IMG/VR virus record: IMGVR_UViG_3300044981_000204
Location: 1-64,000 of that record
Source of the DNA: a virus
Strand: one strand, 5' to 3'
DNA length: 64,000 nt
Position numbers and translations under genes: made by a program. Below, piece by piece: positions 9,930 to 46,900 of the stretch. The notes beneath the pieces are model-generated. The model had not been told where the DNA came from, made no database searches, and worked only from the letters and a program-made list of their open reading frames with translations. Every line of letters starts with the position of its first letter. Positions within the stretch are counted from its first letter, which is position 1.

Positions 9930-9938
9930 GCTGAGCTG

Positions 9939-10439: not shown

Positions 10440-10460
10440 TGGGGGTTCGAGGGAGGCAGT

Positions 10461-10814: not shown

Positions 10815-10863
10815 TTGTTCGCCATCCCGCAACCCGATCGCCTCACCGTGGTAGTATGGTATT

Positions 10864-11283: not shown

Positions 11284-11376
11284 GGATCGAGGCGCGGTTG
11301 GCAACTTGTTGTGTTCGCGCAAGACAACTTGGCGCTACAATGGGGGTGTTGTCGACTTTGTTAGGAGGTGGTTCAT

Positions 11377-11499: not shown

Positions 11500-11505
11500 C
11501 GTCCG

Positions 11506-12532: not shown

Positions 12533-12627
12533 GTGAATCCTTGCTATTATACAACACCTTTATGTGGTGTTTTCATCTTTGTTTTGGCAACTTAGCCAAT
12601 TACCCAAGGATTTCAGCAGTATATAAT

Positions 12628-24226: not shown

Positions 24227-25563
24227 AGTTCCTTATTGTTAGCAATGCAGCAGAGGGTGCCCACATTGGCAAGATCATTGCTAACGAGGGCAACGACGTT
24301 GAGCTCTACATCCGTGAGCCGGGCTACCGCCAGTGCTGGAACGGGCTCCTTCCCAAGGCGAAGAAGATCAACCCGAGCAAGGACACGGTCGTGATATTCG
24401 ATCAGAGCGGCATGGGGGCCGAGGCGGATAAGTTGAAGAAAGCAGGCCATTTCGTGGTGGGGGCGTCCAAGTGGGCCGACCGGCTCGAACACGACCGTGA
24501 GTTCGGGTTCGAGGTCATGGAACAGTGCGGCATAAAGTTTCCGTTCACTACCGAGTTCGACGACTTTGGTCGGGTGGGAGAATTCTTGAAGGAGAATGAC
24601 GAAGACGATGATGGGTGCCCGAGGAGGTTCGTCTTCAAGCCCGAGGGCGACGACCTGCCGGCCCACCTGACATATTGCTCCCTTGACAGCGAGGACTTGT
24701 TGAAGTACCTTGAGTACGTGAAGAAGAACTACTCCAAATCGGTAAAGAACTTCATACTTCAGGAGTTCGTCGAGGGATCCGTGGTTTCGTCGGAGATGTG
24801 GTCCGACGGGTCCCGGTTCATCCGACCCTCGAACCACACGGTTGAGGCGAAGAAGTTCATGGACGGGGACCTTGGTCCCGCCACTGGTTGCAGTGGCAAC
24901 TTGGTCTGGGTTGAGGACGGATCTTGCAGGATCGTGTCGAATGGCATACTTAAGCTTGAGGAATTGGCTGCTGAGGAAGGTCACGTTGGACCCTTGGACC
25001 TCAATGCGGTCGTGAACGATGAGGGAGTTTTTGGCCTCGAGTGGACTCCCCGCTTTGGTTATGCTGCCACCCCCACTCTGATGTTCCTCATGCACGATGG
25101 ATCAATAGGTAAGTTCTTTAGTGATCTAGCAAGAGGCCAGGTGTCGGGGGATATGCCGCTGCGTGACATGTTTGCGGCGGCAATAACAGTGTCCATACCT
25201 CCTTATCCCTTAGAGGCGCCTAGCGTTGAGGATGTCCAGAGGGTTAGGCCAAACGTCGGAATACCTATAAGGGGGTTGGACAATAAGAATGCTGGCTCAT
25301 TCTACTTCTACGAGGTGGAGGAGCAAGATGGTCAGCTGCTCCACTCGACCGGTTCAGGCGCCCTCGGCCTGGCCGTGGGCGTCGGTGAAACCCCCTGGGA
25401 GGCCTTCCGTGGACCTTGTCACGCCTTGGGGGAGTTGATGGTGCCGGAAAAGCAGTACCGAACGGACCTATGTGAGGTTCTATCGTGGCAGTACGAGATG
25501 GTTGAGCACCAGGACGCCATGTCCCTAGGGACTTTGCCTGGTGTTGAGCTTGGGGCGGATTGA
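24223..25563 (+). CDS. PurD (GAR synthetase)-like ATP-grasp ligase
   Basis: LEHDREFG, FVFKP, FILQEFVEG, E-KKFMDGDLGPATGCSG, GPLDLN, LEWTPRFGY. Confidence 0.8.
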   Translation: MKFLIVSNAAEGAHIGKIIANEGNDVELYIREPGYRQCWNGLLPKAKKINPSKDTVVIFDQSGMGAEADKLKKAGHFVVGASKWADRLEHDREFGFEVMEQCGIKFPFTTEFDDFGRVGEFLKENDEDDDGCPRRFVFKPEGDDLPAHLTYCSLDSEDLLKYLEYVKKNYSKSVKNFILQEFVEGSVVSSEMWSDGSRFIRPSNHTVEAKKFMDGDLGPATGCSGNLVWVEDGSCRIVSNGILKLEELAAEEGHVGPLDLNAVVNDEGVFGLEWTPRFGYAATPTLMFLMHDGSIGKFFSDLARGQVSGDMPLRDMFAAAITVSIPPYPLEAPSVEDVQRVRPNVGIPIRGLDNKNAGSFYFYEVEEQDGQLLHSTGSGALGLAVGVGETPWEAFRGPCHALGELMVPEKQYRTDLCEVLSWQYEMVEHQDAMSLGTLPGVELGAD

Positions 25564-27248
25564 TGTCTTCAGCCATTAGTCCGATATTGTCGTTTCCAGC
25601 AAATTACATGAGCCAAGTGCTCAATGAGGGTGGTGCAGCTGGAGGACCTGGGCCAGGTAATGTAAAGGTGAAGGACCTCGACGTGAGGCATCCCGAGTAT
25701 GAGGCGAGGTACGGTGCTTGGTTGGACCTGAGCCTCTTGTATGAGGGTGGGGCGGCCCTCAAGGCCCAAGCTGACCGACTCTTGAAGAAGAGACCGAGGG
25801 AAGATGACGACGTCTATACGGCTCGATTGGACAGGTTCACATACCAGAACATACTAGGGACCGGGCTCGGTTGGTACGGGGCAGCGATGTTCGACACGGT
25901 TCCCGAATTCTTCTTCAACGGTGGATCTGGCTCAAAATTCTATACCGATTTTTTGCAAGATTGCGACGGAGTGGGCACGACGTACGTTGACTTCTTCAAG
26001 AGGGCGTTCCAGGCGCAGTTGACTTACGGCGCGTGTTGGGTTCTCACGGACTTGAGGTCTTTGGGAGAAGGCGAGGAGGAGCCCCGTACTTTAGAAGACC
26101 AGAGATCAAGGGGCTTACTGGATCCGCATGTGGCTTACTACACCCCACTGAACGTGATCAATTGGCAGGTGGACGCACTAGGTCAGCTTAGGTGGGCCGT
26201 GGTGAGGGTCGAGTCCCAGAGGCAGGAGTTCTTGGGTGAGCCCATGGTGGTCACCGCGTGGTACTACTACGACCGAGTTGGTTACAAGGTTTATGAGGAC
26301 GTGAGGAGCGTCGAGGAGCAGGTAAAGGTTGCTAGGGATGAGGGGAGGATGGCAAAATTGGTGAGGAGCGGTACCCATTGCCTGCAGCATGTGGAAAGGG
26401 TGCCTTTGAGGCGGTTGGCCTTGAGCGGTGGTCTGTGGATAGCCAACAGGTCCTACCTACTGTTGGTTGACCACTTGAACCAGGACAATACCCTCGGCTG
26501 GGCGCTGTTTATGTCCAACCTCGCTATGCCGGTGATAATTGGGGATTTTGATGCGTCGGGCATGACCGCTAATGAGGCGGGATTTATGCAGTTTCCTGCT
26601 GGCACGACCTATGAGTGGTCTGAGCCAGAGGGAAAGAGCTTCATACACTCGGCGAAGAGGGTTGAGTCGCTGCGCGAGGAATGCTTTAGGTCGATGAACT
26701 TGCAAGCCCAGGGCAGGAGCATGAAGGCCACTCCCGCTATGCAGTCGGGAAGGAGTAAGATCCTTGAGATGGCCCCCGCTAAGCAGATCTTAGCGGGGAT
26801 GGGGGACGACCTAAGGCAGCACATGCAAGATGTGCTGAACGATGTCAAGGACGCGCGCAGGGAACCCGAAGTGGAACCGGACGTTAGGGGGTTTAGCTTT
26901 CAGGACGACATGAGCACCGAGGAGGTGTTCGCCGTAAATTCTCTTATAAGCATGAAGATACCTTCCCCAACCCTGGAGCGCTACGTCTATAGGAAGGTAG
27001 CCAAGGCCTGGATGCCGGACGCCAACCGGGATCAACTCAAGAAAGTGTACGATGAGATCGAAGAGGGTCCAACTCGTGAGGAGAGGGAGAAGCAGGAATT
27101 AGGCGACCGTGTGGAGTTGGCAAGGTCGGGAATGGCGGAGGCCCTCAAGGATAAGGGACAACCCTTGCAACCTCCGGGTCGCGGGGGGTCGGGACCATCG
27201 GTAAAATCAAAGTCCGCGGGAAAGAGTACTAACGTAAAGGAGAAGTAG
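25563..27248 (+). CDS. Portal protein
   Basis: About 560 aa between terL and scaffold; HPEY...LYEGG...L--R--E-DD-Y-ARL and VINW pattern (DUF4055-like portal). Confidence 0.85.
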   Translation: MSSAISPILSFPANYMSQVLNEGGAAGGPGPGNVKVKDLDVRHPEYEARYGAWLDLSLLYEGGAALKAQADRLLKKRPREDDDVYTARLDRFTYQNILGTGLGWYGAAMFDTVPEFFFNGGSGSKFYTDFLQDCDGVGTTYVDFFKRAFQAQLTYGACWVLTDLRSLGEGEEEPRTLEDQRSRGLLDPHVAYYTPLNVINWQVDALGQLRWAVVRVESQRQEFLGEPMVVTAWYYYDRVGYKVYEDVRSVEEQVKVARDEGRMAKLVRSGTHCLQHVERVPLRRLALSGGLWIANRSYLLLVDHLNQDNTLGWALFMSNLAMPVIIGDFDASGMTANEAGFMQFPAGTTYEWSEPEGKSFIHSAKRVESLREECFRSMNLQAQGRSMKATPAMQSGRSKILEMAPAKQILAGMGDDLRQHMQDVLNDVKDARREPEVEPDVRGFSFQDDMSTEEVFAVNSLISMKIPSPTLERYVYRKVAKAWMPDANRDQLKKVYDEIEEGPTREEREKQELGDRVELARSGMAEALKDKGQPLQPPGRGGSGPSVKSKSAGKSTNVKEK

Positions 27249-28405: not shown

Positions 28406-29305
28406 ATGGCGGCAATTACGTCGGCGAATGTTGCGGACGCTATAGTAAAGTTGGTTGCTGTTGATGCGTTGCCTGCGCTAGTGGGCAACCTCGTGATGGG
28501 CAACCTGGTAAACAGGAGCTTTGAGGCAGACCTGGCCAACCAGGGGGACACCGTCAACATACCGATCCCACCGACGATGGCCGCTAACAACGTGGCGGAG
28601 GGCGGGTCGGTGACTCCCCAAACTCCCTCGCTCGGTAATGCGCAGGTGGTCATCAACACGCACGCTGAGTCCTCGTTCCAAATCCCCGACGTGACGAGGA
28701 TCCTCGCCCATCCGGCACTCCTCGAGATGTACATGATGCCGGCTATCATCTCCCTCGCGGAGCGGATTGAGCAGGACCTCTTGCAGCTGTACCTGAACCT
28801 TACGGCCAACGCCGCATCCGGTACCTCCAACACCACGATCACTGAGTCGGTGGTGGACAGCGCTGAGACGACTCTCTTTAGCGCCAAGGTTCCGGAATCC
28901 TTGCCAAAGTTCTTGGTGGTCAGCGCCGGTACGTATTCCGACATGCGTCAGATCCAGAGGTTCTCGGAGGACAAGGTCTCCCCCGAGATGGCCAGCGTCA
29001 TACCGAGTGGGCAGGTTGGCAAGCTGAAATCGTTCTACGTCATGCGGTCGCAGTACGTGCAGAAGGTTGTGAACACCACGTACAACCTTGGGTTTGCGCG
29101 TGATGCGTTCGCGTTGGTCATGCGCCAGTTGCCCCGACCCCTTCCCAATACTGGCGCCGTCGCGGAGTACGCCACCATGGGCAACTTCGGGATGCGCGTG
29201 GTGTTGAGTTATGCTCCGAACACGCTAGCTCAGCAGTTCACCGTGGATTGCTTGTATGGCGTAGCGGTTCTCCGCAACGTGTACGGGCTGCAGGTTCTAT
29301 CGTAA
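28406..29305 (+). CDS. Major capsid protein (P22 coat-like family, HK97 fold)
   Basis: NR-FE...GDTVNIPIP, FARDAFALVMRQLP, DCLYGV; strong SD. Confidence 0.9.
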   Translation: MAAITSANVADAIVKLVAVDALPALVGNLVMGNLVNRSFEADLANQGDTVNIPIPPTMAANNVAEGGSVTPQTPSLGNAQVVINTHAESSFQIPDVTRILAHPALLEMYMMPAIISLAERIEQDLLQLYLNLTANAASGTSNTTITESVVDSAETTLFSAKVPESLPKFLVVSAGTYSDMRQIQRFSEDKVSPEMASVIPSGQVGKLKSFYVMRSQYVQKVVNTTYNLGFARDAFALVMRQLPRPLPNTGAVAEYATMGNFGMRVVLSYAPNTLAQQFTVDCLYGVAVLRNVYGLQVLS

Positions 29306-32984: not shown

Positions 32985-34274
32985 ATGCCGAACTATTCTT
33001 TCTCGCGCCTAGAGCGTGCATACCTACAAAATCAACCGGTGTTTGGCACCATTCCCAACGCGTCCGGGACCGCTTCTGTCGGCAACTCAAACGCGTGCCG
33101 CTTCATGAAGATGGAGCTGCAGAACGAGGTTGCGCTGCTGGAGCGCCCCGACAAGACAGGCACCAGGTCGATGGAGGGGATGGTCGGTGGTAGGAAGGTT
33201 GGTAGGTGGAGCATAGAGATGTCCACTGCCGCGAACGGCGTCTCTGGCGTCGTGCCGGACTGCGACCCCATACTGGAGGCCGCGTTTGGGCAGGCCGCCG
33301 CGGTGGGTGCGGGGACCACGGCCATAACGAGCTCGACCGATGCTACCCCAATTGTTCTGACTTGCGGGAGCGCCCATGGCATAGCGTCCGGGGCGTTCGA
33401 GGTTGTGTCGGTGTCGGGCCACACCACCAACACCAACGCCAACGGGGTATGGTTGGCGTATGCGCCCAGCACCACCACTCTTACGCTTGTTGGTTCTGCT
33501 GGCAACGGCAACGGCGCAGGAGCTAGCGGAAATGTTAGCAGGGTCAAGGTGACGTACACCTTCGTAGACGCGATTACGCACTTTACGCTTTGGTCGTTCA
33601 GGACTGCCGCAACGTTGGATCAAAGGGTGGCGCACACCTGCGTAGTCACTGAGATGACGTTCAACCTCAACCAGGACGTGGCCACGTGGCAGGCGAACGG
33701 GGATTGTCTGTGGGTCTTACGAAGCAAGGACTTTGGCGTGTCGGACGTCACGCAGAAGGGGGGGCTCGGGGCGTTCCCAACCGAACCGTCCGCGCCAGTC
33801 ACGAACGGCAACCTATTACCCGGGTTCGCCGGCAGGTTCGTCGCAGGCCAGTCGGTGGCCTCGTCGACGGCGGCCGGGTTCGCCGCTGGCGCGTCCACGT
33901 TTCCCACCATAAGGAACGTGACCGTTCGCATCCAGACCCAGAACATGCTGGTGAAGGACACGTTCGGGTCATACTATGCGACGCTCACCGAGGGCGATGT
34001 GCGGAACATCTCGGTTTCGTTCAACATCTACGACGACGATTCGGTCGCCACAAACCAACTAAAGACCTACGGAGACAACAAGACTCCAGTGGACTTGGTG
34101 TTGAACCTCGGCACGGTGATTGGCACAGTCCACGTCTTCTACCTCAAGAACGTGTACCTAGCGTCCCACGTGCTGGGGGACGGGCAGCTGAGGTTCGACG
34201 CTAGCTACGGCGATAGTCGCGCCACGACGACCACACTGAGCGTGAGGGATGAGTTCGAACTAGACATCGTTTAG
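32985..34274 (+). CDS. Major tail tube protein with inserted E1-FCCH-like beta domain
   Basis: Lies before the chaperone and tape measure genes; D-ILEAAFG motif; insert ITSSTDATPIVLT--SAHG...VSG---NTNANG-W. Confidence 0.75.
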   Translation: MPNYSFSRLERAYLQNQPVFGTIPNASGTASVGNSNACRFMKMELQNEVALLERPDKTGTRSMEGMVGGRKVGRWSIEMSTAANGVSGVVPDCDPILEAAFGQAAAVGAGTTAITSSTDATPIVLTCGSAHGIASGAFEVVSVSGHTTNTNANGVWLAYAPSTTTLTLVGSAGNGNGAGASGNVSRVKVTYTFVDAITHFTLWSFRTAATLDQRVAHTCVVTEMTFNLNQDVATWQANGDCLWVLRSKDFGVSDVTQKGGLGAFPTEPSAPVTNGNLLPGFAGRFVAGQSVASSTAAGFAAGASTFPTIRNVTVRIQTQNMLVKDTFGSYYATLTEGDVRNISVSFNIYDDDSVATNQLKTYGDNKTPVDLVLNLGTVIGTVHVFYLKNVYLASHVLGDGQLRFDASYGDSRATTTTLSVRDEFELDIV

Positions 34275-34287
34275 GAAGGAAGGATCT

Positions 34288-34830
34288 GTGGAACCCTACA
34301 AGTACACAACTACCCGAAAGGTCGAGTCTGAGGCATTTCCAGGCGTGTCGTACGTCCTTCGGAAGATGACCGAGGGTCGGCGCATGGAGCTCAGGAAGAC
34401 CATGGGTGAGGCCAATAGGCGTATTCGTGAGATCATGCGCGAGCAGGCGGTCATCGAGAAGCAGCCCGAGGAGTCCAAGGACCTGGTGAAGTGGCTGGAG
34501 CTGCAGGACGAGTTCGACATGATCCGCCTGGAGGTCGTCAACCCCGCGTGGATCCAGTGGGGGGTCAAGCAGATCGAGGGACTTGAAGCTGATGGTGTGG
34601 TCCTGGGGGTTGAAGACTGGAGCTCGTGGCCGTCCGCCCTGGTAGAGGAGGTCGCGAGCGCAGTGCAGGCCGAGTCTGATTTGTCGGGCCAGGAAAAAAA
34701 ACCATTAAGCTCTCCTATCACTTCTGGCGGACAGGAGCCTCCGAAAGCCCACTTTTCGACTGCGTCGAGTGCAAGCGAAGAGGGTATTACAGAGATCGAA
34801 ACTGCTCCTGGTATTTCCCAGATCGTGTAG
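34288..34830 (+). CDS. Tail assembly chaperone (gpG-like)
   Basis: Lies between the tube and tape measure genes; GAAAAAAAAC slippery run at 34693-34702. Confidence 0.8.
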   Translation: MEPYKYTTTRKVESEAFPGVSYVLRKMTEGRRMELRKTMGEANRRIREIMREQAVIEKQPEESKDLVKWLELQDEFDMIRLEVVNPAWIQWGVKQIEGLEADGVVLGVEDWSSWPSALVEEVASAVQAESDLSGQEKKPLSSPITSGGQEPPKAHFSTASSASEEGITEIETAPGISQIV

Positions 34831-35159
34831 ACCCAAACAGAAATATCTGTTGGGAAGCTTCCTATAGGAGCAGCAATGGAAATCAGTTCGTAATCTTCGA
34901 CAGTGCGACTAACGACTGTCCTCAAATCGTATCAGCTCCGTTCACAGAGTTGATACAATTGTTCGCCCGGTCTAAGCTGATGAAAGAGGCCGTTGGCGCA
35001 GCCCCATACGGCGGGGATCTTAATAAATGGCCGTCACGCCTAGTGGACGCGTTCATCATCCTTCAAGGTGAGGCGCAGAGGGTTGACCACATGATGGTTG
35101 CTCCTCAAGCGACTCAGCAGCAAAATCCCAGACAACCTATTCCTATGAGACGAAGATAG
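34695..35159 (+). CDS. Tail assembly chaperone -1 frameshift extension (gpGT-like)
   Basis: The -1 frame is open from the A-run (KTIKLSYHFWR...DCVECK...) into the 34950-35159 ORF without a stop. Confidence 0.8.
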   Translation, partial: KKTIKLSYHFWRTGASESPLFDCVECKRRGYYRDRNCSWYFPDRVDPNRNICWEASYRSSNGNQFVIFDSATNDCPQIVSAPFTELIQLFARSKLMKEAVGAAPYGGDLNKWPSRLVDAFIILQGEAQRVDHMMVAPQATQQQNPRQPIPMRRR

Positions 35160-35196: not shown

Positions 35197-38100
35197 ATGC
35201 CTCTTAATGATTCTTTTTTAGGACAAATTACTGATGCTTTAGTGAATAGGGTTGCGGAACCAAATAAGCTTGAAGATGTTACTGTAAAGATCCGTGAGGT
35301 CGTCTCCAGCCTCCAGCGTTCGGCTACCGTCTTTGACAAGTTCAGCGCTCAGATCTCAAAGGACTTCTCATCGGCAGTAAAAGCAGCTCAACGCGCCCCG
35401 GGGGCCAAGCCCCTCGACTCCCGCGAGATCCACGACGCCTTTAAGAAGTTGGTCGTACCCCTGCGGGACGAGGTCCAACTACTTTCGAGGATGACCAGGG
35501 CCCAGGTGACCCCCGCCACCAACACTAAGCAGAGGGAGTTCGAGCGGTCCGTGAGGGACTCGTTCGTGAGACTGCAAGCAAGGCTTGAGTCGAGGGAGTC
35601 ACGTACCGCCTCTAGGGCCTCCCTTCCAGAGGACGTCAAGTCGATACAGTCGCAGCTCAGGAGGTCCTGGCAAGAACTGCAGAAGTCGACGACCGACCTA
35701 AGTCGCACCACTAAGAAGTCCGCTATTGGTATCGCGGCAGTGGTCGACACCGAGACCACCTATAGGAAGTCCCAGGCGAGGTTGACCAGTTCCATGAAGC
35801 ACCTTGAGAACCAGGTCCTTCAGGTCGGAGTGCAGCTGTTGTCATACAGCAAGAGGACTGGCCAGATCCTCAACGAGAACGTCGCCTCATACCACGGCAT
35901 GCACGAGCTGAACAAGAAGCTCTTGCGTGACTCAGATGTCCTGTACAGTAAGCAGGTTGCAGCGGCGGCAGTCGGGCAGAGGATAGACTGGGGCAAGGTA
36001 AGGGCACTCCTCAACGTGGCGGACTTTGCCGTGGCGCACAACGCGGCATTCGACAAGTCCTTTACCCAGGCAAGGGTTGCTTCCGCAGGGAACATGCCGT
36101 GGTTGGACTCAATGCGGGGTGTGCCCTGGCGTGAGATTGGTCACGCAGGTAGGGCGCTGCAGTCCCTCCTCCCCGCGTATGGTATACGCCCCGGACAAGC
36201 TCACACTGCGTCTGCCGACGTCCAGTCCCTCGTCTCCCTGCTCAAGGCCCGTACCGAGGGAGTGCCGCACATGGCGATGCTCCTCGGGTCGCAGGGACCA
36301 CTGAACCAGTCCCAGCGCCTCCTGTCTGTGGTCGGGGAGCAGGTCAAGTCCCTCCGCGCTGACATCGAGACCAGGCTCGGTAGGGAGAGGTCGCAGTATG
36401 TGCGCAACGCCCAGGGGGACCTCGAGGTTAGGCCAACTGCCAGGGCCCAGTACAGGACCCCCTCCCGGGTGATCGGCGCTGGAAACATATCTTCTCAGAT
36501 CATTGAAGCCATAGAGGGTGGCATAGAGGCAAGGGCGAGGAGGCCTGCTCGCTCCACAGACTACGGAACCAAGTTCGGTTCGGGCGAGGCGCCGGAGTCA
36601 ACTCCCGGGCTGGTTGGTACCGCCGCCATCGGCCTAGACCGGCACATCGGGACTATCAACACCTTCCTGCGCAACATGGCCATTTTGTCCGGCCCAGCCG
36701 CATCTGAGAAGCTCCTGTCGGTCATCACAGAGCAGCAGAGCTTCCAGGAGGGCGTGCAGGCCCACAGGGGCAGGGGCCTACAGACCAAGGCCAACATCCG
36801 CACCGCAGAGGGCCTCCAGCTCGCGATGATGTCGGGCGTGAACACGCGCCTTGAGAACGAGCGACTCGGCGTCCCGAAGAACTTCCAGGACCCGTTCGAG
36901 CAGTCGGACAGGAGGATGGCGCTGCGCAGGGAGCAGTTTGCGGCTCAGCTGGCCTCACAGCCGTGGGCAAGGCCCACCAGGGCTTTCGGCGAGGGCGAGG
37001 TCGCCGAGTTCGTTGGCAGGTTCGGCGGAACAACCCCCTGGCCCCCTGGCACAGGCCACCGGGGCATCATCAGCAGCGCAGCGCAGATGGCAACCTCCGT
37101 GGGCCCTGGGCACCCCCACTTCGACGCCTTGACCGGTATCATCACGAGGGGGCAGATGCGCGGGCGTGCGGCCAACTTCGCCCAGGCCGAGGCCGAAAAG
37201 CAAAGGGCGGTGGAGCTATTGGCCGGGGGCGTACCTCCCGCGGGCGGGTCCAGGTTCGGGAGGTTCGCCAAGGAGCTGTTGAGCGGTGAGGAGGGGTCGA
37301 TCAACCTTACTCGCATTGGTGAGCTCCTTGGTAGGTTCAAGAGGCAGAGGGGGCAGGCCGCGCGAGCTGAGTCGGCCATGGGCTATGGTGATCGAGCCAG
37401 GGGCGATATCCCCTACCCCACGGACCTGCGGGCGCAGCTGCGCCGCGACGTCCTCGACTCCAAGCTCAAGAAGCTGGCCGACGGCGCCGAGGGTGCTGCC
37501 AAGGCACTCAAGCAGTTCGAGGCGGCGGCGGGTGGCAAGGCCAAGGAGGCGATCGGCAGGGGGGCGCTGAGGGACCAAGGCATATCCAGCGCGCTGACGG
37601 ATAAGCAGGCCTCCTTGGACGCTAAGGTCGCCGCCATCTCTGAGCGGAGGGCCAGGTCCCAAGCGGCCTCCATGAGGCGCGAGAACGACGTCAGGGAGGC
37701 GTCCACAGCCAAGTACACCAACCTGGCCAAGGCCGAGCTGAGGGCGTCAGAGTCGTACGATGCTGCGCTGGCCAGGCAGGACAGACTGAGGGCCCGACTT
37801 GGTTCCTCCAAAGCCTACCAGAACATTACTCCAGAAGAGAAGAACAGGATGCTGGAGTCGGTGGTCAGGCCGTCGCTGATGAGGCTGACGAGGGCCAGGT
37901 ATGAGGCAACGGCCTCAGAAGTCACCGATCCTGAGCAGCTGGCGAAGTTGAGGTCGTCCGTGGCGGCTAGGGCCGCCATACAGAGGTTTGGGTCGGGGTC
38001 GGGCGAGGCAACCTACCAGGGGCGGGTGAGGCCCCTTGAGGAGCTCCGCAAGGAGTACAGGGACCGGGTCGCCCAGTCCCTCGGCGGCAGGACGGTCGCC

Positions 38101-41100
38101 CAGGCGGAGGCCGAGAAGGTTGGCAGGATCAGGGAGGAACAGGCCCTCAAGCAAAAGGCCTACGATGAGCAGGAGGTCGGCGTTGCGCAGAAGAGGGCCT
38201 CGGCGGAGGAGGGGGCATCCAGGAAGAGGTCCGAGAACGCCCAGAAGGTGAATGCAACCGTTGGCCGGCTCGAGGAGCAGGTAAACCAGCGCAGGGAGAA
38301 ATCTCAGAAGAAGCAAGTCGATGCTGAGGAGAAGATCCACCAGCTGAAGGTGGCGCACCTGAAGAGGGAGGATATCGCTTCTGGAGGAGGCGGGGGAGGG
38401 GGTGCTGGTGGGGCTGGGGGAAGGGGCCAGTTCGCGAGCCGCACAGGGATGGGGATGGGGCTCGGGTTTGCTGCATTTGCTGGGGCGTCGAAGGGCTTGT
38501 GGGACCTGGTGAAGGCCGCGACTGAATATTCCGCTAGGACTGAGGTGATGGCCTTTACGACCGCCAACATGGCGAAGGTTAACAAGCTAAACGTCGACGA
38601 GGTGAATGCAGAAGTTGAGGCAATCAAGAACCTCAACCTGACCACGCAGGCTGCACACACCACTGTCCAGAAGATGATGTTTGCGCAGTTGGACCTTGCC
38701 AAGGCCTCTAAGTTGGCGAGGGTCGCGCAGGACGTCGCGGTCATGGGAGGCATCGACCCGTCCGAGGCGCTGGAGAAGTTGATACGCGGTGTCACGACGG
38801 GGTACACCATACAGCTGCACAGGATGGGTTTGCTGATTAGCCAGATCCAAACCATCAGGGAACTCAAGATAGAGAAGCGGGCTAAGGGAGAAGCGGGTGA
38901 GCCGACCGAAGTTGAGAAGCGCCAAGCCCTGATGAACAAGGTGCTCATCGAGGGCGCTAAACTAACTGGGGCGTATGAGAAGTCGATGCTGTTGGTTGGC
39001 GGCAGGTTTGCGTACCTCTCGAAGGAAGTCCAAGAGGCCAAGAACGCGCTCGGTTCTGCATTCTTGCCGACGTTCAACAAGTTCGTCACCATGGTCACCG
39101 GGGGTGCTAGGTTCGTGCAGCAGCACGGTGACGCGGTCGCGGCGCTGACTAAGCAGCTGATGTCCCTTGGGGCTGCCGCAGGGACCATCGGCACCCTGGC
39201 CTTCTTCAGGTGGCTGATGATGTCCGGCAGCGTGCCGATATGGGCCAAGGTCGCTGGCGGGGTGGTGTACGCGCTGACCAACATCGGGTTGAGCGCCAAC
39301 GCGTCGTCCGAGGCGATGAAGAACGCCAAGGATCAGATGGATGCCCTCGAGAAGAAGATCAAGGAGCTGAGGGAGGAGCGCAAGGCCTTGTTCAAGGCCC
39401 CCGAAAAGGGAAGTGAGTGGCAGTCGCAGGTCGATGCCAACTATCAGGCGTTGAAGTCGGCGTCGGAGATGGAGGTCGACATAGTCAAGGACACCACCCG
39501 GAAATTGGCCGCGGAGTGGCAGAAGCAGGTCAATGACAAGAAGAATGCTGTCTCCGCTTTGGCGAACGAGGACCTCTTTAGGCAAGGTTTCGGGCTTCCC
39601 CCCTCTCAGAAACCGATCAAGGACGTGCGTAAGCAGATTGAGGCCATGGATGATGACTACTTCACAGTTAGGGGCATGTCGAAGAAGGACGTCTTGGCCG
39701 AGTTCGACCGCCAGCAGCGGGAGAAGGAGCGCCTGAAGCAGCCAGGGGCTGCTCAGATAGTTAACAAGGAGAATGAAAAGGCTGACAGAATTAAGTCGGA
39801 CCTACTCGAGCTCGAGACAGAATTAACGAAGCTCGACTTGGCGCAGTCGGAGCGCGGTCGAGCTGGCCTTAAGGCTCGCAAGGCCTTCGGCACCCCCAGG
39901 GAGAAGATACAGCTCGATTATGAGTTCGAGATTGCGAAGATAAAGGACCGAGACAAGGAGATCAGGAAACTCCAAGAGGACGCAGCTAAGGGGGACGTTA
40001 GTGCGCAGGCCGTGCTTGAGCGCGTTTATTCTGGCACCCCCGGGGGAAAGGAGGGGGTTGAAGCGTCGCTTGCTAAGCAGGGGATTGCCGTAGATGAGGC
40101 GGCCAAGAACAGGGACATCGAGCTTGGGAAGCTTACAGCTCAGACCAACGCGCACATCAAACAGATCCAGTCGCAGACGGCCATCGAGAGGATCCTTGGA
40201 CAGGTGGTGCAGGGGAACTACACCTCGGAGCAGAATGCTGTTGAGCAGGTCTTCAACGCCCGCAAGAAGTTGCTTGACTCTATCAAGGAAACGATCGGGG
40301 TCGACGAGTACAGGAAGCAGTTGGAGGAGGCGGAAGCTGAGCGTGCCAAGTCCTTGTTGGATGTTGAGAAGAGGCGTCGGGATGCGAACAGGGAAAGGAC
40401 CCTGGACGAGGCGAAGTATCCAGCGGATCGTGGGGCGCAGGACATCATGGAGGGGCCGAGGTCGGCCGAGGTAGCTACACACCTTGCATTCGACCTGAAG
40501 CGACAAGCAGCTGCGCTCGACCTGGACGAGGAGCGCAGGATAGATAGGATCATCGAGCTGAACCGCGAGGAGGACGAGGCAATCAAGCAGCTGGGGCGCG
40601 ACAAGGCAAAGATGAATGCCGAGTCGAGGATCGATGAGTTCAAGAACCTGCAGCAACTGCAGTCAGAAGTGGACCGCATCGTGTATGGTCGAGGGAAGGG
40701 CTCGGACACCCAGGAGGCGATGGCCGAGATTGAGAGGAACAGGCTCAGGGCTTGGGCTGCTGCTTCCTTTGAGTTCACCCAAAGGATGGGTTTGCCACAC
40801 ACAGCTATACAAGGAGCTGATTTAGCGGAGTCGAGGGTTGCAGCTGAGCGTGCGGCAGATGTTCAAGCGACAGTGGACACCGTCAAGCGCCTCGAGCAGC
40901 ACGAGGAGTCCTCCCGCTCCAAGCTCCAGGACACCTACCAGCGACAGCTGCAGCAGGCGTCGCGCGTAGGTGAGCTGCAGGCGGTGAACATTGCCGACCA
41001 AGACGCGGCCGCCCACCGCGCCTACCTGATGCGGCTGGAGTTCATCAAGAAGGAGTTCGAGGCCAGCAAGCAAGCTGTCGAGGACGTCCACAAGCGCGAC

Positions 41101-42579
41101 CTCGAGCTCCAGCAGGCGGAGTTCGACGAGTGGCAGCGGCTGCAGGAGCAGAAGAAGCAGAAGCTGGAGGAGCTGCGCGGGTTCTCGGGCAACATCTTCG
41201 ACATCGTCACCTCGAGGACCCCTGACAGGGCGCGGCAGGCCAGGGACTATGCCATCGGGCTGGGCAAGGGCGTGGGGCGGACGGTGTTCCAGAACCTTTC
41301 TGTTGAGACGTTTAAGAACGTGGGCGGTATGCTGGGGAACGTGATACCCCAAGGCACGCAAGGTCACCCGAACTTCATCGCTAAGCTACTCGGCGGTACT
41401 CCGTTCGCTAAGCAGTACGACCCACAAGCTCAGCTGGCGAAGGCCACGATAGATAGTACTTCTGCTGAACAGGACCTGACGAAGGCCATTCAGAGCTTGG
41501 ATGAGGCGGTGAGGAGCGTGGGTGGGCTTCCTGGAGGAGTCCCAGGATCGGGATCGACCGGTTCGGGCCTATCGTTCGTTCCCGGCGTTGGGACGTTCAT
41601 GAACGCAATCAGCGCTGGAGGAGGTGTGCCGGCCATGTCTGCAGTTCCGGGGTTGGGATCCTTTATGTCTGTCGCATCTACAGCGGGTTCCTTGGCCAGG
41701 GTACTGCAGGGTTCTGGCGGTAGTGGGTCGACTTCCGGCTTATCGCTTGTTCCAGGAATCGGCACATTGATGGACTTAGCTAGCTCAGGGACTAGCTCTG
41801 GAGGGGGAGCTCCGGCTGATGCAATAGTTTCTTCCGGCATATTGGGGAATAAGGGTGGTGGAATGGGTAAGGTCGCCGGCATAGGGATGGCGGCAGGCGG
41901 GGCCTACCAGGCGATCACCGGATTTAAGAAGGGTGGGGTTGGGGGCATATCTAGCGGCATAGGAGGAGTACTATCTTCGGCGGCAGGAATAACGGCCATG
42001 ATACCCGGGGCCCAGATAGCTGCGCCATTCCTCATGGCGGGATCCATGATAGCGGACTTCATAGGGTCCATGTTCGGCAACTCAAGGGAGCAAAGGGCCA
42101 TCGACATACAGAAATACTCCGACCAGAGCAAGTACATCGCCCCCGTGCAGATAAATAGGGAGATGAGCGCCAGCGGCGACTTGCTCAGCTACAACAAGTA
42201 CGGGATGGCCCGCGACTCGGGCATAGGGGCGTTCCCGATACCGATCTCTCCTACGCAGTACGGCAGGACGCCGTCTAAGACGTGGGCGAACCCGAACATT
42301 CCAGAGTACTACACGATCCCGGGTCAGGTTGTTCCTCCCTCCTCGTCGGCACCCGGCGGGGTGGGGTCCTCCTACATCTCCCCCGGGCAGGTGCCGTCGA
42401 CCGTAACGGCGCCAAGTGGTGGAGGGGGCCACACCACCATCATAAACATCCCGGTCCACGCCATCGACGCAAAAGACATCATGTCTCGGTCCGCCGTCTT
42501 TGCTCAGGCCATAAACAAGGAGCTCAAGAGTGGATCAGATCTTGCCATAGGAATTACCCAGGCGGTATTCGGGGCATAG
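35197..42579 (+). CDS. Tape measure protein (2460 aa) with embedded DEDDh 3'-5' exonuclease domain
   Basis: Long helical Ala/Glu/Arg-rich ORF after the chaperone, with a Gly-rich C-terminus; VVDTETT, AHNAAFD and AHTASAD motifs. Confidence 0.9.
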   Translation: MPLNDSFLGQITDALVNRVAEPNKLEDVTVKIREVVSSLQRSATVFDKFSAQISKDFSSAVKAAQRAPGAKPLDSREIHDAFKKLVVPLRDEVQLLSRMTRAQVTPATNTKQREFERSVRDSFVRLQARLESRESRTASRASLPEDVKSIQSQLRRSWQELQKSTTDLSRTTKKSAIGIAAVVDTETTYRKSQARLTSSMKHLENQVLQVGVQLLSYSKRTGQILNENVASYHGMHELNKKLLRDSDVLYSKQVAAAAVGQRIDWGKVRALLNVADFAVAHNAAFDKSFTQARVASAGNMPWLDSMRGVPWREIGHAGRALQSLLPAYGIRPGQAHTASADVQSLVSLLKARTEGVPHMAMLLGSQGPLNQSQRLLSVVGEQVKSLRADIETRLGRERSQYVRNAQGDLEVRPTARAQYRTPSRVIGAGNISSQIIEAIEGGIEARARRPARSTDYGTKFGSGEAPESTPGLVGTAAIGLDRHIGTINTFLRNMAILSGPAASEKLLSVITEQQSFQEGVQAHRGRGLQTKANIRTAEGLQLAMMSGVNTRLENERLGVPKNFQDPFEQSDRRMALRREQFAAQLASQPWARPTRAFGEGEVAEFVGRFGGTTPWPPGTGHRGIISSAAQMATSVGPGHPHFDALTGIITRGQMRGRAANFAQAEAEKQRAVELLAGGVPPAGGSRFGRFAKELLSGEEGSINLTRIGELLGRFKRQRGQAARAESAMGYGDRARGDIPYPTDLRAQLRRDVLDSKLKKLADGAEGAAKALKQFEAAAGGKAKEAIGRGALRDQGISSALTDKQASLDAKVAAISERRARSQAASMRRENDVREASTAKYTNLAKAELRASESYDAALARQDRLRARLGSSKAYQNITPEEKNRMLESVVRPSLMRLTRARYEATASEVTDPEQLAKLRSSVAARAAIQRFGSGSGEATYQGRVRPLEELRKEYRDRVAQSLGGRTVAQAEAEKVGRIREEQALKQKAYDEQEVGVAQKRASAEEGASRKRSENAQKVNATVGRLEEQVNQRREKSQKKQVDAEEKIHQLKVAHLKREDIASGGGGGGGAGGAGGRGQFASRTGMGMGLGFAAFAGASKGLWDLVKAATEYSARTEVMAFTTANMAKVNKLNVDEVNAEVEAIKNLNLTTQAAHTTVQKMMFAQLDLAKASKLARVAQDVAVMGGIDPSEALEKLIRGVTTGYTIQLHRMGLLISQIQTIRELKIEKRAKGEAGEPTEVEKRQALMNKVLIEGAKLTGAYEKSMLLVGGRFAYLSKEVQEAKNALGSAFLPTFNKFVTMVTGGARFVQQHGDAVAALTKQLMSLGAAAGTIGTLAFFRWLMMSGSVPIWAKVAGGVVYALTNIGLSANASSEAMKNAKDQMDALEKKIKELREERKALFKAPEKGSEWQSQVDANYQALKSASEMEVDIVKDTTRKLAAEWQKQVNDKKNAVSALANEDLFRQGFGLPPSQKPIKDVRKQIEAMDDDYFTVRGMSKKDVLAEFDRQQREKERLKQPGAAQIVNKENEKADRIKSDLLELETELTKLDLAQSERGRAGLKARKAFGTPREKIQLDYEFEIAKIKDRDKEIRKLQEDAAKGDVSAQAVLERVYSGTPGGKEGVEASLAKQGIAVDEAAKNRDIELGKLTAQTNAHIKQIQSQTAIERILGQVVQGNYTSEQNAVEQVFNARKKLLDSIKETIGVDEYRKQLEEAEAERAKSLLDVEKRRRDANRERTLDEAKYPADRGAQDIMEGPRSAEVATHLAFDLKRQAAALDLDEERRIDRIIELNREEDEAIKQLGRDKAKMNAESRIDEFKNLQQLQSEVDRIVYGRGKGSDTQEAMAEIERNRLRAWAAASFEFTQRMGLPHTAIQGADLAESRVAAERAADVQATVDTVKRLEQHEESSRSKLQDTYQRQLQQASRVGELQAVNIADQDAAAHRAYLMRLEFIKKEFEASKQAVEDVHKRDLELQQAEFDEWQRLQEQKKQKLEELRGFSGNIFDIVTSRTPDRARQARDYAIGLGKGVGRTVFQNLSVETFKNVGGMLGNVIPQGTQGHPNFIAKLLGGTPFAKQYDPQAQLAKATIDSTSAEQDLTKAIQSLDEAVRSVGGLPGGVPGSGSTGSGLSFVPGVGTFMNAISAGGGVPAMSAVPGLGSFMSVASTAGSLARVLQGSGGSGSTSGLSLVPGIGTLMDLASSGTSSGGGAPADAIVSSGILGNKGGGMGKVAGIGMAAGGAYQAITGFKKGGVGGISSGIGGVLSSAAGITAMIPGAQIAAPFLMAGSMIADFIGSMFGNSREQRAIDIQKYSDQSKYIAPVQINREMSASGDLLSYNKYGMARDSGIGAFPIPISPTQYGRTPSKTWANPNIPEYYTIPGQVVPPSSSAPGGVGSSYISPGQVPSTVTAPSGGGGHTTIINIPVHAIDAKDIMSRSAVFAQAINKELKSGSDLAIGITQAVFGA

Positions 42580-42580: not shown

Positions 42581-42985
42581 ATGCCAACCTTTCCAACCCT
42601 ATCTTCCGGATCCATGGTCGTGGCACCATCCCTGTCCGGCCAAGCGATCGCCATGTACCCCGCGACCCTTAGGAGCTCGTTCGTCACGAGGGTAATCAAG
42701 TTCGTCAACGACACGGAGCAGCGGTGGGTTGTGAGGGGTAGGTTGTTCTCGGCCGTGTTACAGTTACACGACCTCAATGGGTACGACACAAGCCTATTGG
42801 TGAACTTCTTCAACACGATGAGGGGTGAGTATGTCGATGCGGCGCTGACCAATGTTTTCGACATCACCATCGACGGCGTTCAGTACTTCTGGTGCGTCTT
42901 CGACCAAGACGTTTTGCAGGTGCAGGAGGAGCCAGGCCTCAAGTATTCTTTCCAAATGGCGATCAGGCAATTGAGGCCCAACTAG
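42581..42985 (+). CDS. Distal tail protein-like (DUF2460-like)
   Basis: MPTFP-L, EQRW and FF--MRG motifs; follows the tape measure gene. Confidence 0.65.
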   Translation: MPTFPTLSSGSMVVAPSLSGQAIAMYPATLRSSFVTRVIKFVNDTEQRWVVRGRLFSAVLQLHDLNGYDTSLLVNFFNTMRGEYVDAALTNVFDITIDGVQYFWCVFDQDVLQVQEEPGLKYSFQMAIRQLRPN

Positions 42986-42987
42986 TC

Positions 42988-43845
42988 ATGCCAACATATT
43001 TTCCTCAAATAAACAGCAATCTTATAATGACCCAGCTCCCGTACTCGACTGATCAGGGGTTTGGCACGATAGTCCAGGACGTGGAGAGTGGTCCGAGGTT
43101 CACGTACCCCATGAGGGGTGCTGGCCACTCCGGGTTTCCCACGGGGCCGCTTGGCAGGTTCAACTTGAATTTTCCGAACATAACGGACGCTGAGGTATCG
43201 ACGCTTAAGGCGTTCCACGCCTCCATGAGTGGGCGGTGGGGGGCGTTCAGGTTCCTTGACCCGGGAGGCAACTTGCTGCAGTACAGCGAGGACTTCACAC
43301 AGACATATTGGGACAAATCCAACGGGCCAGTAACCGTTGGCGGCTTGGTTGCTGATCCGCTTGGCGGAGGACAGTGCTACTCACTAACGTCTGGAGCTAG
43401 CATATCAGCTGTGCTTGGGCAAGTTGGGCCTGCCGACGGTGGGATGTCCGGGTTCATCATGTGCGTTTCGGCCTGGATACAGGTTCAGGACCCAAATCAG
43501 CTCATATTCATTGGCTTCGCGAATTCGTCGTTCGTGCTGAGGGGGGAGTACTACCGACCTACCCAGGGGGTTTGGGTGAGGATCAAGCACACGGAGGTTT
43601 TGTGGGACAACAACGCGTTCAGGGCTATCATAGGAGGGGCGCAGTCAACGTTCCAGGGAGGTAGGCAGATGTATGTCTTCGGCGCCCAGGTGGTTCCAAT
43701 GAAGGGGGAAGGAGCAAGGGTGGCGGCGCCTAGTCGCTGGGGTTATCACGCCAATTGTCGATTTGACGTGGACATGTTCGAGAGACAGGTTGGGGGACCA
43801 AATCAGAACACTCTGTCGCTTCCGGTAGTGGAGTTCAATGTTTAG
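42988..43845 (+). CDS. Second Dit-like protein with inserted carbohydrate-binding-like domain
   Basis: F--M-GRWGAFRFLDP, then an NLLQYSEDF insertion, then CRFD. Confidence 0.65.
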   Translation: MPTYFPQINSNLIMTQLPYSTDQGFGTIVQDVESGPRFTYPMRGAGHSGFPTGPLGRFNLNFPNITDAEVSTLKAFHASMSGRWGAFRFLDPGGNLLQYSEDFTQTYWDKSNGPVTVGGLVADPLGGGQCYSLTSGASISAVLGQVGPADGGMSGFIMCVSAWIQVQDPNQLIFIGFANSSFVLRGEYYRPTQGVWVRIKHTEVLWDNNAFRAIIGGAQSTFQGGRQMYVFGAQVVPMKGEGARVAAPSRWGYHANCRFDVDMFERQVGGPNQNTLSLPVVEFNV

Positions 43846-43901: not shown

Positions 43902-46900
43902 ATGGCTTCAATCGGATCTATTCTTACCGCAAAAGAGCAATCTCAGACCTATCGTCCTCTTCTCCTATGTGAATTTACGTTCAAATCAGGCCGCATCCTT
44001 CGCGTGTCTACAGATCCTCTCTCTTCAACTTACTATGGGACTCCTACAGCCGGTACATATGAGTTCCAAGGAGCCCCTTGGTATCCACGTGTTTTGAATC
44101 AGGACATTGGTGCCACGCAAAGTATGAGTGATGTGGGAATTGATACTGTTCCAACTGTCACTATCGTGTTGGATGATCCTGACAAAAATTTGTACTTGAA
44201 CTGGGAGCAGAATGAGGGGTTTAAGGGGAGCACGCTTCGGCTCTATAGTACGATGTGGGACCCCACGAACAGGGCAACCGGTTCTTTCTCCAGTGATGGT
44301 TTGACCTTGATCAAATTTATCGGGATTTGCAGCAGTCCAAGCATGGACGATCGAACGTTGACCGTTTCCGTGACTTCACTGCTTAATATGACGCAATCCC
44401 AAATGCCGGCCCTGCGCATACAACCTCTCTGCTCGTGGACGTTTGCAGGAACTCCTGCGAATCAGATCGATGGTCAGAGCGATGATTCTAGTCCGTTTTT
44501 CCAATGTGGTTATGGGTACGGTGTTGGTGGGCCCGGAAATCCTTCTTCTGGTACAGCGGCATTTACCTTTTGCACGTACGATTTTGACGCTTGCATATCT
44601 AGGCTTGGTAACGCCGGCGCGCCCATACCTATTCTGCAGGATCAGTTTGGCAATCATACTGGTAGGTTCGGAGGGTTTAGGTTCGTGCCGAGCTTGAATG
44701 TTGGGCTCCAAAGACCCTATGTTTCAGGTAAATGGGAACAGATCATAAACGTAAACGCCAATGACACCAAGTATGGCGACGCGGTGCCGTTGGCCTATGG
44801 AACGACTTGGGTTACGCCTCCGGTCATGGGAGTATGGGGCGATGGCAACTACACGGGCATAGAGGTCCTACTCTCATTTGGCCAGATAAATCGCGTTAAG
44901 AAGGTGGTCGTGAACGGGCACGAGGTCGCCCAGATCGCGGACGAGTTCTCCACGCAGCCGAACAACTACCTTCCCAGCGACGCTACGGTGTCTGACTTCA
45001 AGAACGGCTTCTGGAAGACCGTCAACAATGGCCAGCGAAACGGCACCCCTAGTCCGCAACCGGGCTGGCAGAGCCTTGGGGATCCGTATGGCAGCACGTG
45101 CGCGATCTACATAGAGGTCCTTCGGCAAATAGCTTCAGAAGGGTCCCTTCCACAGGTTCAGGTGCTTGTGGAGGGCCAGCAGCTTCGGGTCTATACGAAC
45201 CCTACGACGTTCACTAAGATCTTTACGCAGAATCCTGCCTGGATCCTCTTGGACGTGCTGACGTGGGCCACGTGGCGCTACCAGGACATCGACCTCCAAT
45301 CGTTCATAGATGCTGCGCAAATCTGTGATCAGCAAATAAACTTCTTTAGGATGGACGGGATTTTCTCAAACGTTTATTCCGACTCTGGAAACCCTCCGTA
45401 TGCCAAGTACTCCGTGGGTTTTTGTATTCAGCAAAGGACCTCCATAGGGGAACTAGTCCGTGGGTTGCGCAACGCCATGAAGGCGATGTTGTTCTTCGAC
45501 TACCAATCTGGTAAGTTGAAGCTGGTCATCAAGCAGACAATAGCGTCACAGCAGCCCAATCCTATCCCCGGCTCTAACTTCAACACCCCTGTTCCATCTG
45601 TGACCGTGGCGGGCGTCTCTCAGACTGGCTATGTGGCATATAGTTTTGACGCAAGCAACATTACTAAGTCGGACGACGGTCGCCTTTCCCTGAATATCAG
45701 GCAACTGACGAACCAGGACGCTGCGAGCAAGGCGTCAGTTACGTTCCAGAACCGCGAGAACTCGTTCTCACAAGATAGCGCGACCATAGTCGACACTGAA
45801 GATGTTGCTAGGCTTGGGTTCGAGGTTGCGTCCGGCAACTTCACGGTGGTGGGACCTCAAACCTTCGACCACGTTAGACGGGTGGTTCTGACGTGGATGG
45901 CTGAGAACTACAGGGGAAATGCTCGGTTGGACTATACCGGATCTGCCATAGGTGATACTGGCGGCACGTTGATCGCTGAACTAGAGACCACAGTGAAAGC
46001 GATCCATCTTGTGGTTGGTCACATAGTGATGTTGTCCGACCTCCAGCATGGGTTGGTGAACCAGCCATTTCGCATCATTAAGGTGCAACCGTCTGTCAAC
46101 TTTGAAACGTGCAAGGTCACGATGACGTTTCACAACGACAATTGGTTTCAAGATTCATATGGTCAGGCAAACCAGCCCAAGTACTCCCGAGTCCAGACCC
46201 TGGTCACCAGACCCCCGTTTGCCTTGCGTCCCGGCATAGAGCAGCCAATAGTTGGTGACGCATACTATGGCAGGACGGACCTTGGGTTCGGGGTGCAGGA
46301 GTCGTTCACCGTAGCGGCTGACAAGAGCGTGATCGCGCAGGTTCTTGTGACCACGAAGGTCCCCGTGAACTCATTCCCAACCGCACCCGGGCGACCCAAG
46401 TTGGAGCTGGCGGGAGCGCAGGCAAGTGGTGGCGGCTACCCGCCAAGCACCACGTATTATGCGGCCTTATCAGCACTGCAGGGGGTCGGGACGTCGTCGC
46501 TAATGTCGGCGCTTTCCGACCCTGTTCCGATCACCCTCGACGGGTCCCACGGGGCCCTGAGCTTCAGCGTGCAGCACTGGCCGGACAACCCATCCGGGTA
46601 CTTCGCGTTCGCGGGGGACGACCCGTTCGACATGTCGTACCAAGCCCAATCGACCGCTAACCCCTCGTCAGTGGTGCTGACCAACAACTACAACAAAGCG
46701 TCGTGGGGACCTCCAGATGAGGCCGCGTCCAATTTTAGGTGGGAGATATTTCGCATTCGACACTCGGGAGTTTGGGGTGCCTCGGTCTTAGCAGTGTCCT
46801 CAACCACCATCCAGGTACCGGTTTTCCCGGGGTGGGGCTTCTTGAGCAACCAGTGGGCGGGTAGGGTGTTGTCTGTGCTCGGGATAGCTACAACGGACGC

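Follow-up and report, generated by a model that had tools for sequence, protein, structure and literature searches.

A DEDDh exonuclease domain in the N-terminal extension of a probable giant tape measure protein from an uncultured long-tailed phage

Introduction

The first 64,000 nucleotides of the IMG/VR virus record IMGVR_UViG_3300044981_000204 (this whole stretch, as analysed here, is called the window) contain on the plus strand a stop-free open reading frame (ORF), 35197-42579, whose translation is 2460 residues long and which very probably encodes a tail tape measure protein. Within the N-terminal part of this giant protein, at residues 173-365 (35713-36291, plus strand), profile, fold and structure matches identify a DEDDh 3'-5' exonuclease domain. 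The record from which the window derives is linear, 120,021 bp in length and has an estimated completeness of 92%.

The enzymatic cargo of the known tape measure proteins is muralytic, is situated either internally or at the C-terminus, and acts on the cell wall. The substrates of nucleotide and nucleic-acid enzymes are cytoplasmic. An original prediction, made from the letters of the sequence without database searches, had placed a DnaQ-like DEDDh exonuclease inside a tape measure protein of the window. Here, we analyze this domain, the locus that encodes it and the family of giant proteins to which it belongs, and suggest what its presence in a virion structural protein could mean.

Results

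The exonuclease domain

The DEDDh signature is complete in the 2460-residue protein, with all five catalytic positions occupied. The D-x-E of ExoI lies in the motif VVDTETT, which starts at residue 182 (35740-35760; D184 at nucleotide 35746 and E186 at 35752), the aspartate of ExoII in AHNAAFD, which starts at residue 280 (36034-36054; H281, N282 and D286, the last at nucleotide 36052), and the H-x4-D of ExoIII in AHTASAD, which starts at residue 335 (36199-36219; H336 at nucleotide 36202 and D341 at 36217); all three motifs are on the plus strand. The catalytic residues named in the original prediction are at exactly these positions in the translation, and its location for the domain was right too, except that the proposed segment, 35725-36250, ended slightly short. 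The start codon of the ORF is backed by the alignment of homologues, in which D5 and N23 are invariant.

Among the curated models, NCBIfam NF006615 ('3'-5' exonuclease') matches residues 173-364 over its profile positions 45-224 of 307 (E 3.7e-21, 75.2 bits; 73.9 bits when the whole record was searched), the PADLOC model for Cas-associated DEDDh proteins matches over positions 2-138 of 139 (1.5e-11), and PHROG 192, the 'DNA polymerase exonuclease subunit', does so at 5.9e-8. A search with RNase_T and DEDDh models had been proposed as a check, and its outcome was divided: these three models recognize the domain, but Pfam RNase_T gives no match to the window's protein. RNase_T does match four of the eight giant family members described below at E<=0.01 (best 2.4e-6).

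When the domain alone was compared by phmmer with the sequences of the PDB there was no match at E<=10, and a profile built from 67 sequences was needed. This alignment, A2, contains the query, the seven other giants and, from the 142 shorter proteins listed in the family search described below, 59 that were chosen only for having fewer than 300 residues. D184 and E186 are present in 67/67 of its rows, the histidine and aspartate of ExoII are invariant, and H336 and D341 occur in at least 90% of rows. The A2 profile matches 30 distinct PDB sequences at E<=0.001; the best matches are the PolC-type exonuclease of T. maritima (2p1j, 2.9e-24), the exonuclease of DinG (8.5e-18), ExoX (1.9e-14) and DnaQ (8.7e-13), and PolC was also found. 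The three motifs of the window's domain align residue for residue with those of 2p1j and DinG.

The AlphaFold2 model made from A2 has a mean predicted local distance difference test score (pLDDT) of 86.6, a predicted template-modelling score of 0.84 and the DEDDh fold that structure prediction had been expected to reveal. VIA-align superposes this model on E. coli Pol III epsilon (2gui) over 158 residues with a Z of 15.7 and a root-mean-square deviation of 2.6 Å, and on DinG, the Cas-linked DnaQ domain of S. thermophilus and PolC with Z of 14.5-15.5; Z is 8 or more for 459 of 999 chains, and the top-listed rows are DEDDh enzymes. Of the best 500 PDB matches of Foldseek, 225 reach E<=0.001; the list is headed by the DinG exonuclease, DnaQ, RNase T, PolC, epsilon and TREX1/2, all with a probability of 1.00 and with template-modelling scores of only 0.45-0.57. 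The matches from the BFVD library of viral structures were phage proteins of the 'epsilon' or DEDDh kind, all free-standing; none was a tape measure.

The evidence of motifs and profiles for a DEDDh domain is far beyond chance, and in this respect the original prediction has stood up well. Residues 173-365 are thus predicted, from profile and model alike, to form a genuine DEDDh/DnaQ-like exonuclease fold, of the RNase H-like alpha/beta type, whose nearest kin are the DNA-acting DnaQ/ExoX group. With epsilon, the exonuclease domain of PolC, the N-terminal exonuclease of S. aureus DinG and ExoX it shares the fold, the three motifs and the histidine general base (profile E-values to PDB chains of 2.9e-24 to 2.6e-8, Z of 14.5-15.7); it differs from such DnaQ-like enzymes in being internal to a 2460-residue virion structural protein, in scoring below the curated cut-offs and in having an insertion after ExoI. 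There is a further likeness to the Cas2-DEDDh and Cas-associated DnaQ fusions (PDB entries 8h18/8h2f and 8fy9 are among the profile and structure matches), in which a DEDDh domain has also been grafted onto an unrelated machine and in which few copies trim defined 3' ends. However, the carrier protein and the biology are entirely different in that case, and the likeness is generic to the superfamily, with no evidence of a link to clustered regularly interspaced short palindromic repeats (CRISPR).

The tape measure slot

The giant ORF lies directly 3' of a chaperone gene with a -1 frameshift, and between a candidate tube gene and putative tail-tip genes, in the place where a tape measure gene is expected: in long-tailed phages, a frameshifted chaperone of the G/GT type precedes the tape measure gene. 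The zero-frame chaperone candidate, G-like and 180 residues long (34288-34830, plus strand), has no family match in PHROG or Pfam; two syntenic phages, L001 and L003, encode counterparts that share 52-61% identity with it. A GT-like extension in the -1 frame (34680-35159 from stop to stop, plus strand) overlaps the 3' end of this gene, and a slippery heptamer, A_AAA_AAA, is in phase for the -1 shift at 34695-34701 on the same strand. L001 and L003 have the heptamer A_AAA_AAC in the same phase, and the three genomes share 56-59% identity in the -1 frame peptide. As a separate observation, this extension (34680-35159 in the window, 9193-9699 in L001 and about 6269-6700 in L003) contains a conserved cysteine-rich stretch, YHFWRTG..FDCV.CKR.GY...RNCS.YFP...CWEA, which from its sequence looks like a small metal-binding module; such a module would be unusual for a GT-type chaperone.

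Upstream of the chaperone is the candidate tail tube gene (429 residues, 32985-34274, plus strand). It has no direct PHROG or Pfam match, and its assignment comes from the ESM Atlas, in which 29 of 30 feature hits fell in clusters of PF18906 (Phage_tube_2) with a score of 0.97. Downstream of the giant ORF, a candidate distal tail protein of 317 residues (42892-43845, plus strand), which is syntenic in L001 and L003, has two weak PHROG matches, to a distal tail protein (3e-4) and to a glycoside hydrolase (9e-5). It is followed by very large plus-strand ORFs of 1364, 1008 and 1361 residues (43902-47996, 48005-51031 and 56817-60902), which have marginal family matches or none and presumably encode tail tip or fibre proteins. 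Farther upstream are the genes for the large terminase (21883-23325), the portal (25560-27248) and a P22-coat-like major head protein (28406-29305). An ORF of 446 residues situated between the terminase and the portal (24223-25563, plus strand) matches the ATP-grasp domain of GARS (PF01071, 8.7e-7), which is odd in such a position.

Between the window's phage, L001 and L003, the major head protein is 87% identical and the tail tube 72-77%, whereas the tape measure is only 32-34% identical; by this comparison, the tape measure evolves much faster than its neighbours.

Core homology and the tape measure assignment

A conserved core of the giant protein (residues 1085-1316; 38449-39144, plus strand) provides a second line of evidence. 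A scan of IMG/VR with this core (residues ~1100-1300) found shorter relatives, three of which are recognized by PHROG tape measure models: the L010 protein, 1168 residues long, matches eight tape measure PHROGs (best 9.3e-14), the L008 protein, of 723 residues, matches phrog_3779 at 1.9e-18, and the L005 protein matches phrog_28 at 2e-4; the L004 and L007 proteins have no PHROG tape measure match. In hhalign comparisons, a profile of the eight giants aligned with the L010 protein at 96.6% probability (E 5.8e-10, 224 columns) and with the L008 protein at 76.6%. Because the core is thus connected to two proteins that the PHROG tape measure models recognize, we accept the assignment of the 2460-residue ORF as a tail tape measure protein, which we consider very probable. 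The placement of the exonuclease inside a tape measure, as originally predicted, is accordingly borne out by the tube gene, the frameshifted chaperone, the remote homology of the core and the weak distal-tail match in the next large gene.

The ORF might instead encode some other ejected or internal virion protein, the length of the tail being set by a different gene. Such a possibility finds some encouragement in the fact that no tape measure model of Pfam, PHROG or NCBIfam matches any of the eight giants, and in the presence downstream of the other very large unannotated ORFs. Nevertheless, a frameshifted chaperone directly upstream that is conserved in three genomes, a tube gene before it and a weak distal-tail match after it, together with the alignment to the L010 protein, make this alternative very unlikely. 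Searches with NCBIfam of five pieces of the 2460-residue protein gave only noise, and the profile of the eight giants matched PDB entries in its exonuclease only.

The N-terminal extension

In seven core-bearing sequences (L004, L005, L007, L008, L009, L010 and L016) the tblastn match is confined to residues 1094-1416 of the window's protein. The extension, residues 1-1060 (35197-38376, plus strand), is absent from these shorter, core-only relatives: their core lies about 65-140 residues from the start of the reading frame in L004, L007 and L016, and no trace of the extension was found in the 7-10 kb upstream that were examined for the core-only relatives of 723-1168 residues. The L004 protein has at least 940 residues, that of L007 is complete at 942, L009 is a short fragment and L016 has a frame of 1159 residues. 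Since the core-only relatives lack it, the extension of about 1060 residues is an accretion onto a standard tape measure.

The junction of extension and body is marked by a glycine-rich linker (residues 1063-1077; 38383-38427, plus strand) in which G1065, G1068 and G1071 are invariant in the family. An internal start at M1085, just after this linker, was considered and rejected; the GGAGG-like strings about 50-65 nucleotides upstream are too far away for a ribosome-binding site.

The L016 frame (9752-13228) came from a scan of species genomes with core patterns and lies on a contig of an Acidobacteriota metagenome-assembled genome. Its core is 45-48% identical to that of the window's protein, it has no exonuclease, and no homologue of the tube or chaperone is found nearby. 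It may be a prophage tape measure, and it hints, albeit weakly, at Acidobacteriota as hosts of phages with this core.

Other members of the family carry further domains. The extension of the giant relative P0006 contains a DUF4406 or nucleoside 2-deoxyribosyltransferase-like domain at residues 588-702 (Pfam 3e-16; phrog_355 1.7e-24), a second nucleotide-directed enzyme within a tape measure. Compared with the window's protein, that of the giant ORF of L001 (9716-17716) is longer by an insert at about its residues 555-720, and its alignment with P0006 is continuous over residues 1-2349. Near the C-terminus of another giant, P0010, is an endolysin-like segment (residues 2212-2316; phrog_873 1.5e-13), a cargo of the classical tape measure kind at the opposite end from the exonuclease. 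The wall-acting domain would thus be proximal to the tail tip and the nucleotide and nucleic-acid enzymes proximal to the head, an arrangement in which the two ends of the protein may work in different compartments. No lead came from the ESM Atlas for residues 366-700 (best score 0.76).

A family of giants

When 1.84 billion cluster representatives were searched exhaustively by phmmer with the domain, 1077 reached E<=1e-3 and 220 of these E<=1e-10. Among the 150 hits listed there are eight giants of 2445-2824 residues, the window's own included, in which the domain occupies residues 141-365 or thereabouts (E 1e-135 to 9e-23); the remaining 142, generic exonucleases of 126-706 residues, are at most 45% identical (E 3.5e-22 or weaker). 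The seven other giants align with the window's protein from end to end at 27-43% identity. Two IMG/VR contigs, of 116.8 and 131.8 kb, encode further giants of 2666 and 2503 residues (the latter an open frame) whose domains are intact. With these two IMG/VR loci and the seven cluster representatives, nine other proteins have the same architecture. A scan of metagenomes added a 1.9-kb fragment with part of one more member.

The seven residues D184, E186, H281, N282, D286, H336 and D341 are invariant in 8/8 aligned giants. A survey of related tape measures, which had been proposed as a test of the prediction, thus finds both the fusion and its catalytic residues maintained. When the giants are divided into 11 segments, the mean pairwise identity is highest in the exonuclease (0.53), followed by the core (0.48), and is 0.25-0.46 elsewhere. 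The retention of the active site among syntenic phages, despite tape measures that are so divergent, argues for a function.

In a FastTree phylogeny of 69 domain sequences, from which no rows were dropped, the ten domains embedded in tape measures form one side of a branch with a Shimodaira–Hasegawa-like support of 98, the window's copy being the earliest to diverge among them. The topology of this tree fits a single old fusion of an exonuclease to a tape measure.

Free-standing relatives also occur. Genes annotated '3'-5' exonuclease' are found in 91 plasmid records, mostly of Rhizobium and its allies, and in the 15 of these that were listed the identity is about 25-30%. Searched by tblastn, the GenBank phages returned only free-standing 'Pol III epsilon' genes (nine records by the domain and eight by the whole protein) and no tape measure relative. 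Scanning IMG/VR with C-terminal patterns found only the two contigs already known, scanning species genomes with family patterns found no prophage, and word-indexed protein searches, which are of limited sensitivity, returned the window's own protein only, or nothing.

Discussion

Is the domain a working exonuclease?

One alternative is that the domain is a replication proofreader, or an assembly artefact in which a dnaQ-like gene has been wrongly joined to the tape measure gene. The domain is indeed the sole DEDDh match in the 120-kb record, its nearest annotated phage homologues are named Pol III epsilon, and the phage's own family A polymerase of 675 residues (minus strand; 72468-73709, outside the window; L012 1471-3498) has no 3'-5' exonuclease domain detectable with Pfam DNA_pol_A_exo1 (PF01612). 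But the uninterrupted architecture recurs in three independent IMG/VR contigs and in seven other cluster representatives, the domain is preceded by 170 residues and followed by about 2100, and the N-terminal region of the polymerase aligns with a 646-residue PDB chain of Pol I from residue 61. This alternative is largely refuted and scarcely credible. A proofreading role as such is unlikely because the domain lies within a structural protein, because the polymerase belongs to family A, with no match to DNA_pol3_alpha in the 120-kb record (no DnaE partner), and because the N-terminal region of that polymerase aligns with Pol I.

The two-metal active site is complete and conserved. Judged from its sequence and model, the domain is hence most likely a working enzyme that attacks 3'-OH ends, probably those of DNA. 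It could alternatively be kept as a 3'-end-binding module without a working nuclease, which would anchor the front end of the packaged genome in the uppermost part of the tail and pull it along the tube. DEDDh folds do bind single-stranded 3' ends, as structures among the PDB matches illustrate, and a head-proximal N-terminus like that reported for T5 (PMC11784142) would adjoin the DNA end. Yet the five catalytic residues and the HN of ExoII are invariant in all eight aligned giants, and binding-only relatives usually lose some of these. We regard a pure binding role as decidedly improbable.

Delivery ahead of the genome

A parallel for the position of the domain in the virion is offered by T5. 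There, the tape measure occupies the tube as far as the terminator, the density in the proximal tube is attributed to its N-terminus, the tape measure density is about 25 Å wide, consistent with a trimer, and the protein is expelled on receptor binding (PMC11784142). In the window's protein, residues ~1080-2460 would be the standard tape measure body, to which the glycine-rich linker would join the N-terminal extension. If T5 is a valid guide, the exonuclease would adjoin the leading DNA end in the virion, would be the last of the contents of the tail lumen to leave, just ahead of the genome, and would begin its work as soon as infection starts, ahead of all phage gene expression. Our preferred interpretation is that this is the tape measure of an uncultured phage of about 120 kb with a long tail, and that its N-terminal extension carries a DEDDh exonuclease that is delivered ahead of the DNA; we believe the chances for and against this to be about evenly balanced. 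The comparisons above establish the domain, its fold and its conservation, the slot of the gene and the accretion of the extension; the activity of the enzyme, its retention and delivery with the virion and its target are conjectural.

The original prediction listed genome ends, host or defence nucleic acids and signals as possible targets. Only a few copies would arrive per virion if the protein, like that of T5, forms a trimer, and a job on a single substrate would therefore be favoured over bulk degradation. By this analogy the likeliest task is the processing of a 3' end of the entering genome, or of some other low-copy 3' end. The enzyme could trim or hold such an incoming 3' end and, as one example, expose the complementary 5' strands of terminal repeats for circularization. 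Few copies could also attack a low-copy 3' end of the host; the degradation of host DNA in bulk or of signalling nucleotides would suit them less.

Several observations weigh against delivery of an active exonuclease by a tape measure. Some concern the domain: its ExoI lacks the usual TTGL and is then followed by an insertion of about 11 residues; its 75 bits against NF006615 (PRK09182) fall far below the cut-off of 207 bits, so that it would be a relative of that subfamily and not a member; Pfam RNase_T (PF00929) gave no match at E<=10 to the whole protein, to residues 161-380 or in the genome search; and AlphaFold2 run on the single sequence gave an all-helical model with a pLDDT of 54, which was discarded. 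Others concern the carrier, since the tape measure call rests on position, on the frameshift and on one hhalign link of 96.6%, with direct models silent for all eight giants, and the tube assignment is a language-model lead with no alignment behind it. The family, moreover, is rare (three IMG/VR records and eight cluster representatives, both counts including the window's own, and one short metagenome contig) and has no known cultured member. There is also a steric doubt, for a lumen density of about 25 Å, as reported for T5 (PMC11784142), must be reconciled with three folded domains of about 190 residues; these would need to lie one behind another, lose part of their fold or be placed outside the tube. 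Lastly, the extension could be cleaved off, for instance at the glycine-rich linker.

The last of these points leads to a different explanation, in which the extension and its exonuclease act in the producing cell and outside the infectious particle: a fusion serving late, stoichiometric expression would be cut, for example near the linker, during tail assembly, and the nuclease so released would attack host DNA or intermediates of replication or packaging. Tape measures such as lambda gpH undergo proteolytic processing, the extension is separable in that the core-only relatives lack it, the conserved linker lies exactly at the junction, and a folded domain fits poorly into the tape measure density of the T5 lumen (PMC11784142). 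On the other side, the fusion has been kept in ten sequences down to 27% overall identity and no split form was found. The 142 non-giants among the 150 listed hits are generic, distant exonucleases, and a comparison of residues 366-660 with shorter proteins, by a word-indexed search of limited sensitivity, found nothing. Nor is it obvious why a nuclease working late in the cytoplasm should require fusion to a tape measure. An action confined to the producing cell consequently appears rather unlikely to us, although it is less so than a mere binding role.

Delivery ahead of the DNA can also be viewed more broadly. The N-terminal extension might be a cargo bay for enzymes that act in the cytoplasm and are threaded through the tail ahead of the DNA, so that the tape measure would become a vehicle for protein injection. 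The cargo would comprise the exonuclease in every member and the nucleoside 2-deoxyribosyltransferase-like domain in some, and, ahead of transcription of the first phage gene, it could disarm a host defence based on nucleic acids or nucleotides or make the genome end ready. We offer this wider proposal only tentatively, as a possibility with rather more against it than for it.

Relation to other virion enzymes

Enzymes delivered with the virion are familiar from N4 (the virion RNA polymerase), T4 (Alt) and P1 (Dar). To our knowledge, none of the virion enzymes of phiKZ, N4, T4 (Alt) or P1 (Dar) is a 3'-5' exonuclease. In phiKZ, virion enzymes are co-injected (bioRxiv 10.1101/2024.03.24.586471). 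The RNA polymerases of phiKZ and N4, the inner-body proteins of phiKZ, Alt and Dar are all packaged in the head and not, as would be the case here, in the length ruler of the tail. Conversely, the cargo-bearing tape measures of the T5 pb2, mycobacteriophage TM4 and TP901-1 type resemble the window's protein as long proteins of the tail lumen with an enzymatic module that is released on ejection, but they differ from it in the nature and location of that module, which here is a nucleic-acid enzyme in an N-terminal add-on.

No description of a DEDDh/DnaQ domain inside a tape measure was found in a full-text literature that covers few subscription journals. In the available portions of the papers that pair the two, the exonuclease is a separate gene, and a report that tape measures are poorly covered by domain databases makes no mention, in the part available, of an exonuclease fusion (PMC10684548).

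Biological significance

The entry of tape measures into the cytoplasm, and any roles they have beyond the opening of the envelope, are poorly resolved, and a conserved exonuclease offers a direct handle on both: the substrates of such an enzyme lie in the cytoplasm, a single substitution suffices to kill its active site, and mass spectrometry can reveal whether it is present in the virion. If the extension proves to be cleaved off, the finding would reduce to an unusual gene fusion. If, on the other hand, the exonuclease is delivered, it would constitute, as far as is known, a new kind of pre-expression effector, a nuclease whose route into the cell is the tail lumen and not the head, and the N-termini of tape measures would be a natural site for protein cargo. 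Such effectors matter for the understanding of how phages survive the first seconds of infection, and the architecture described here suggests that in some phages a nuclease made in advance enters the cell immediately before the genome.

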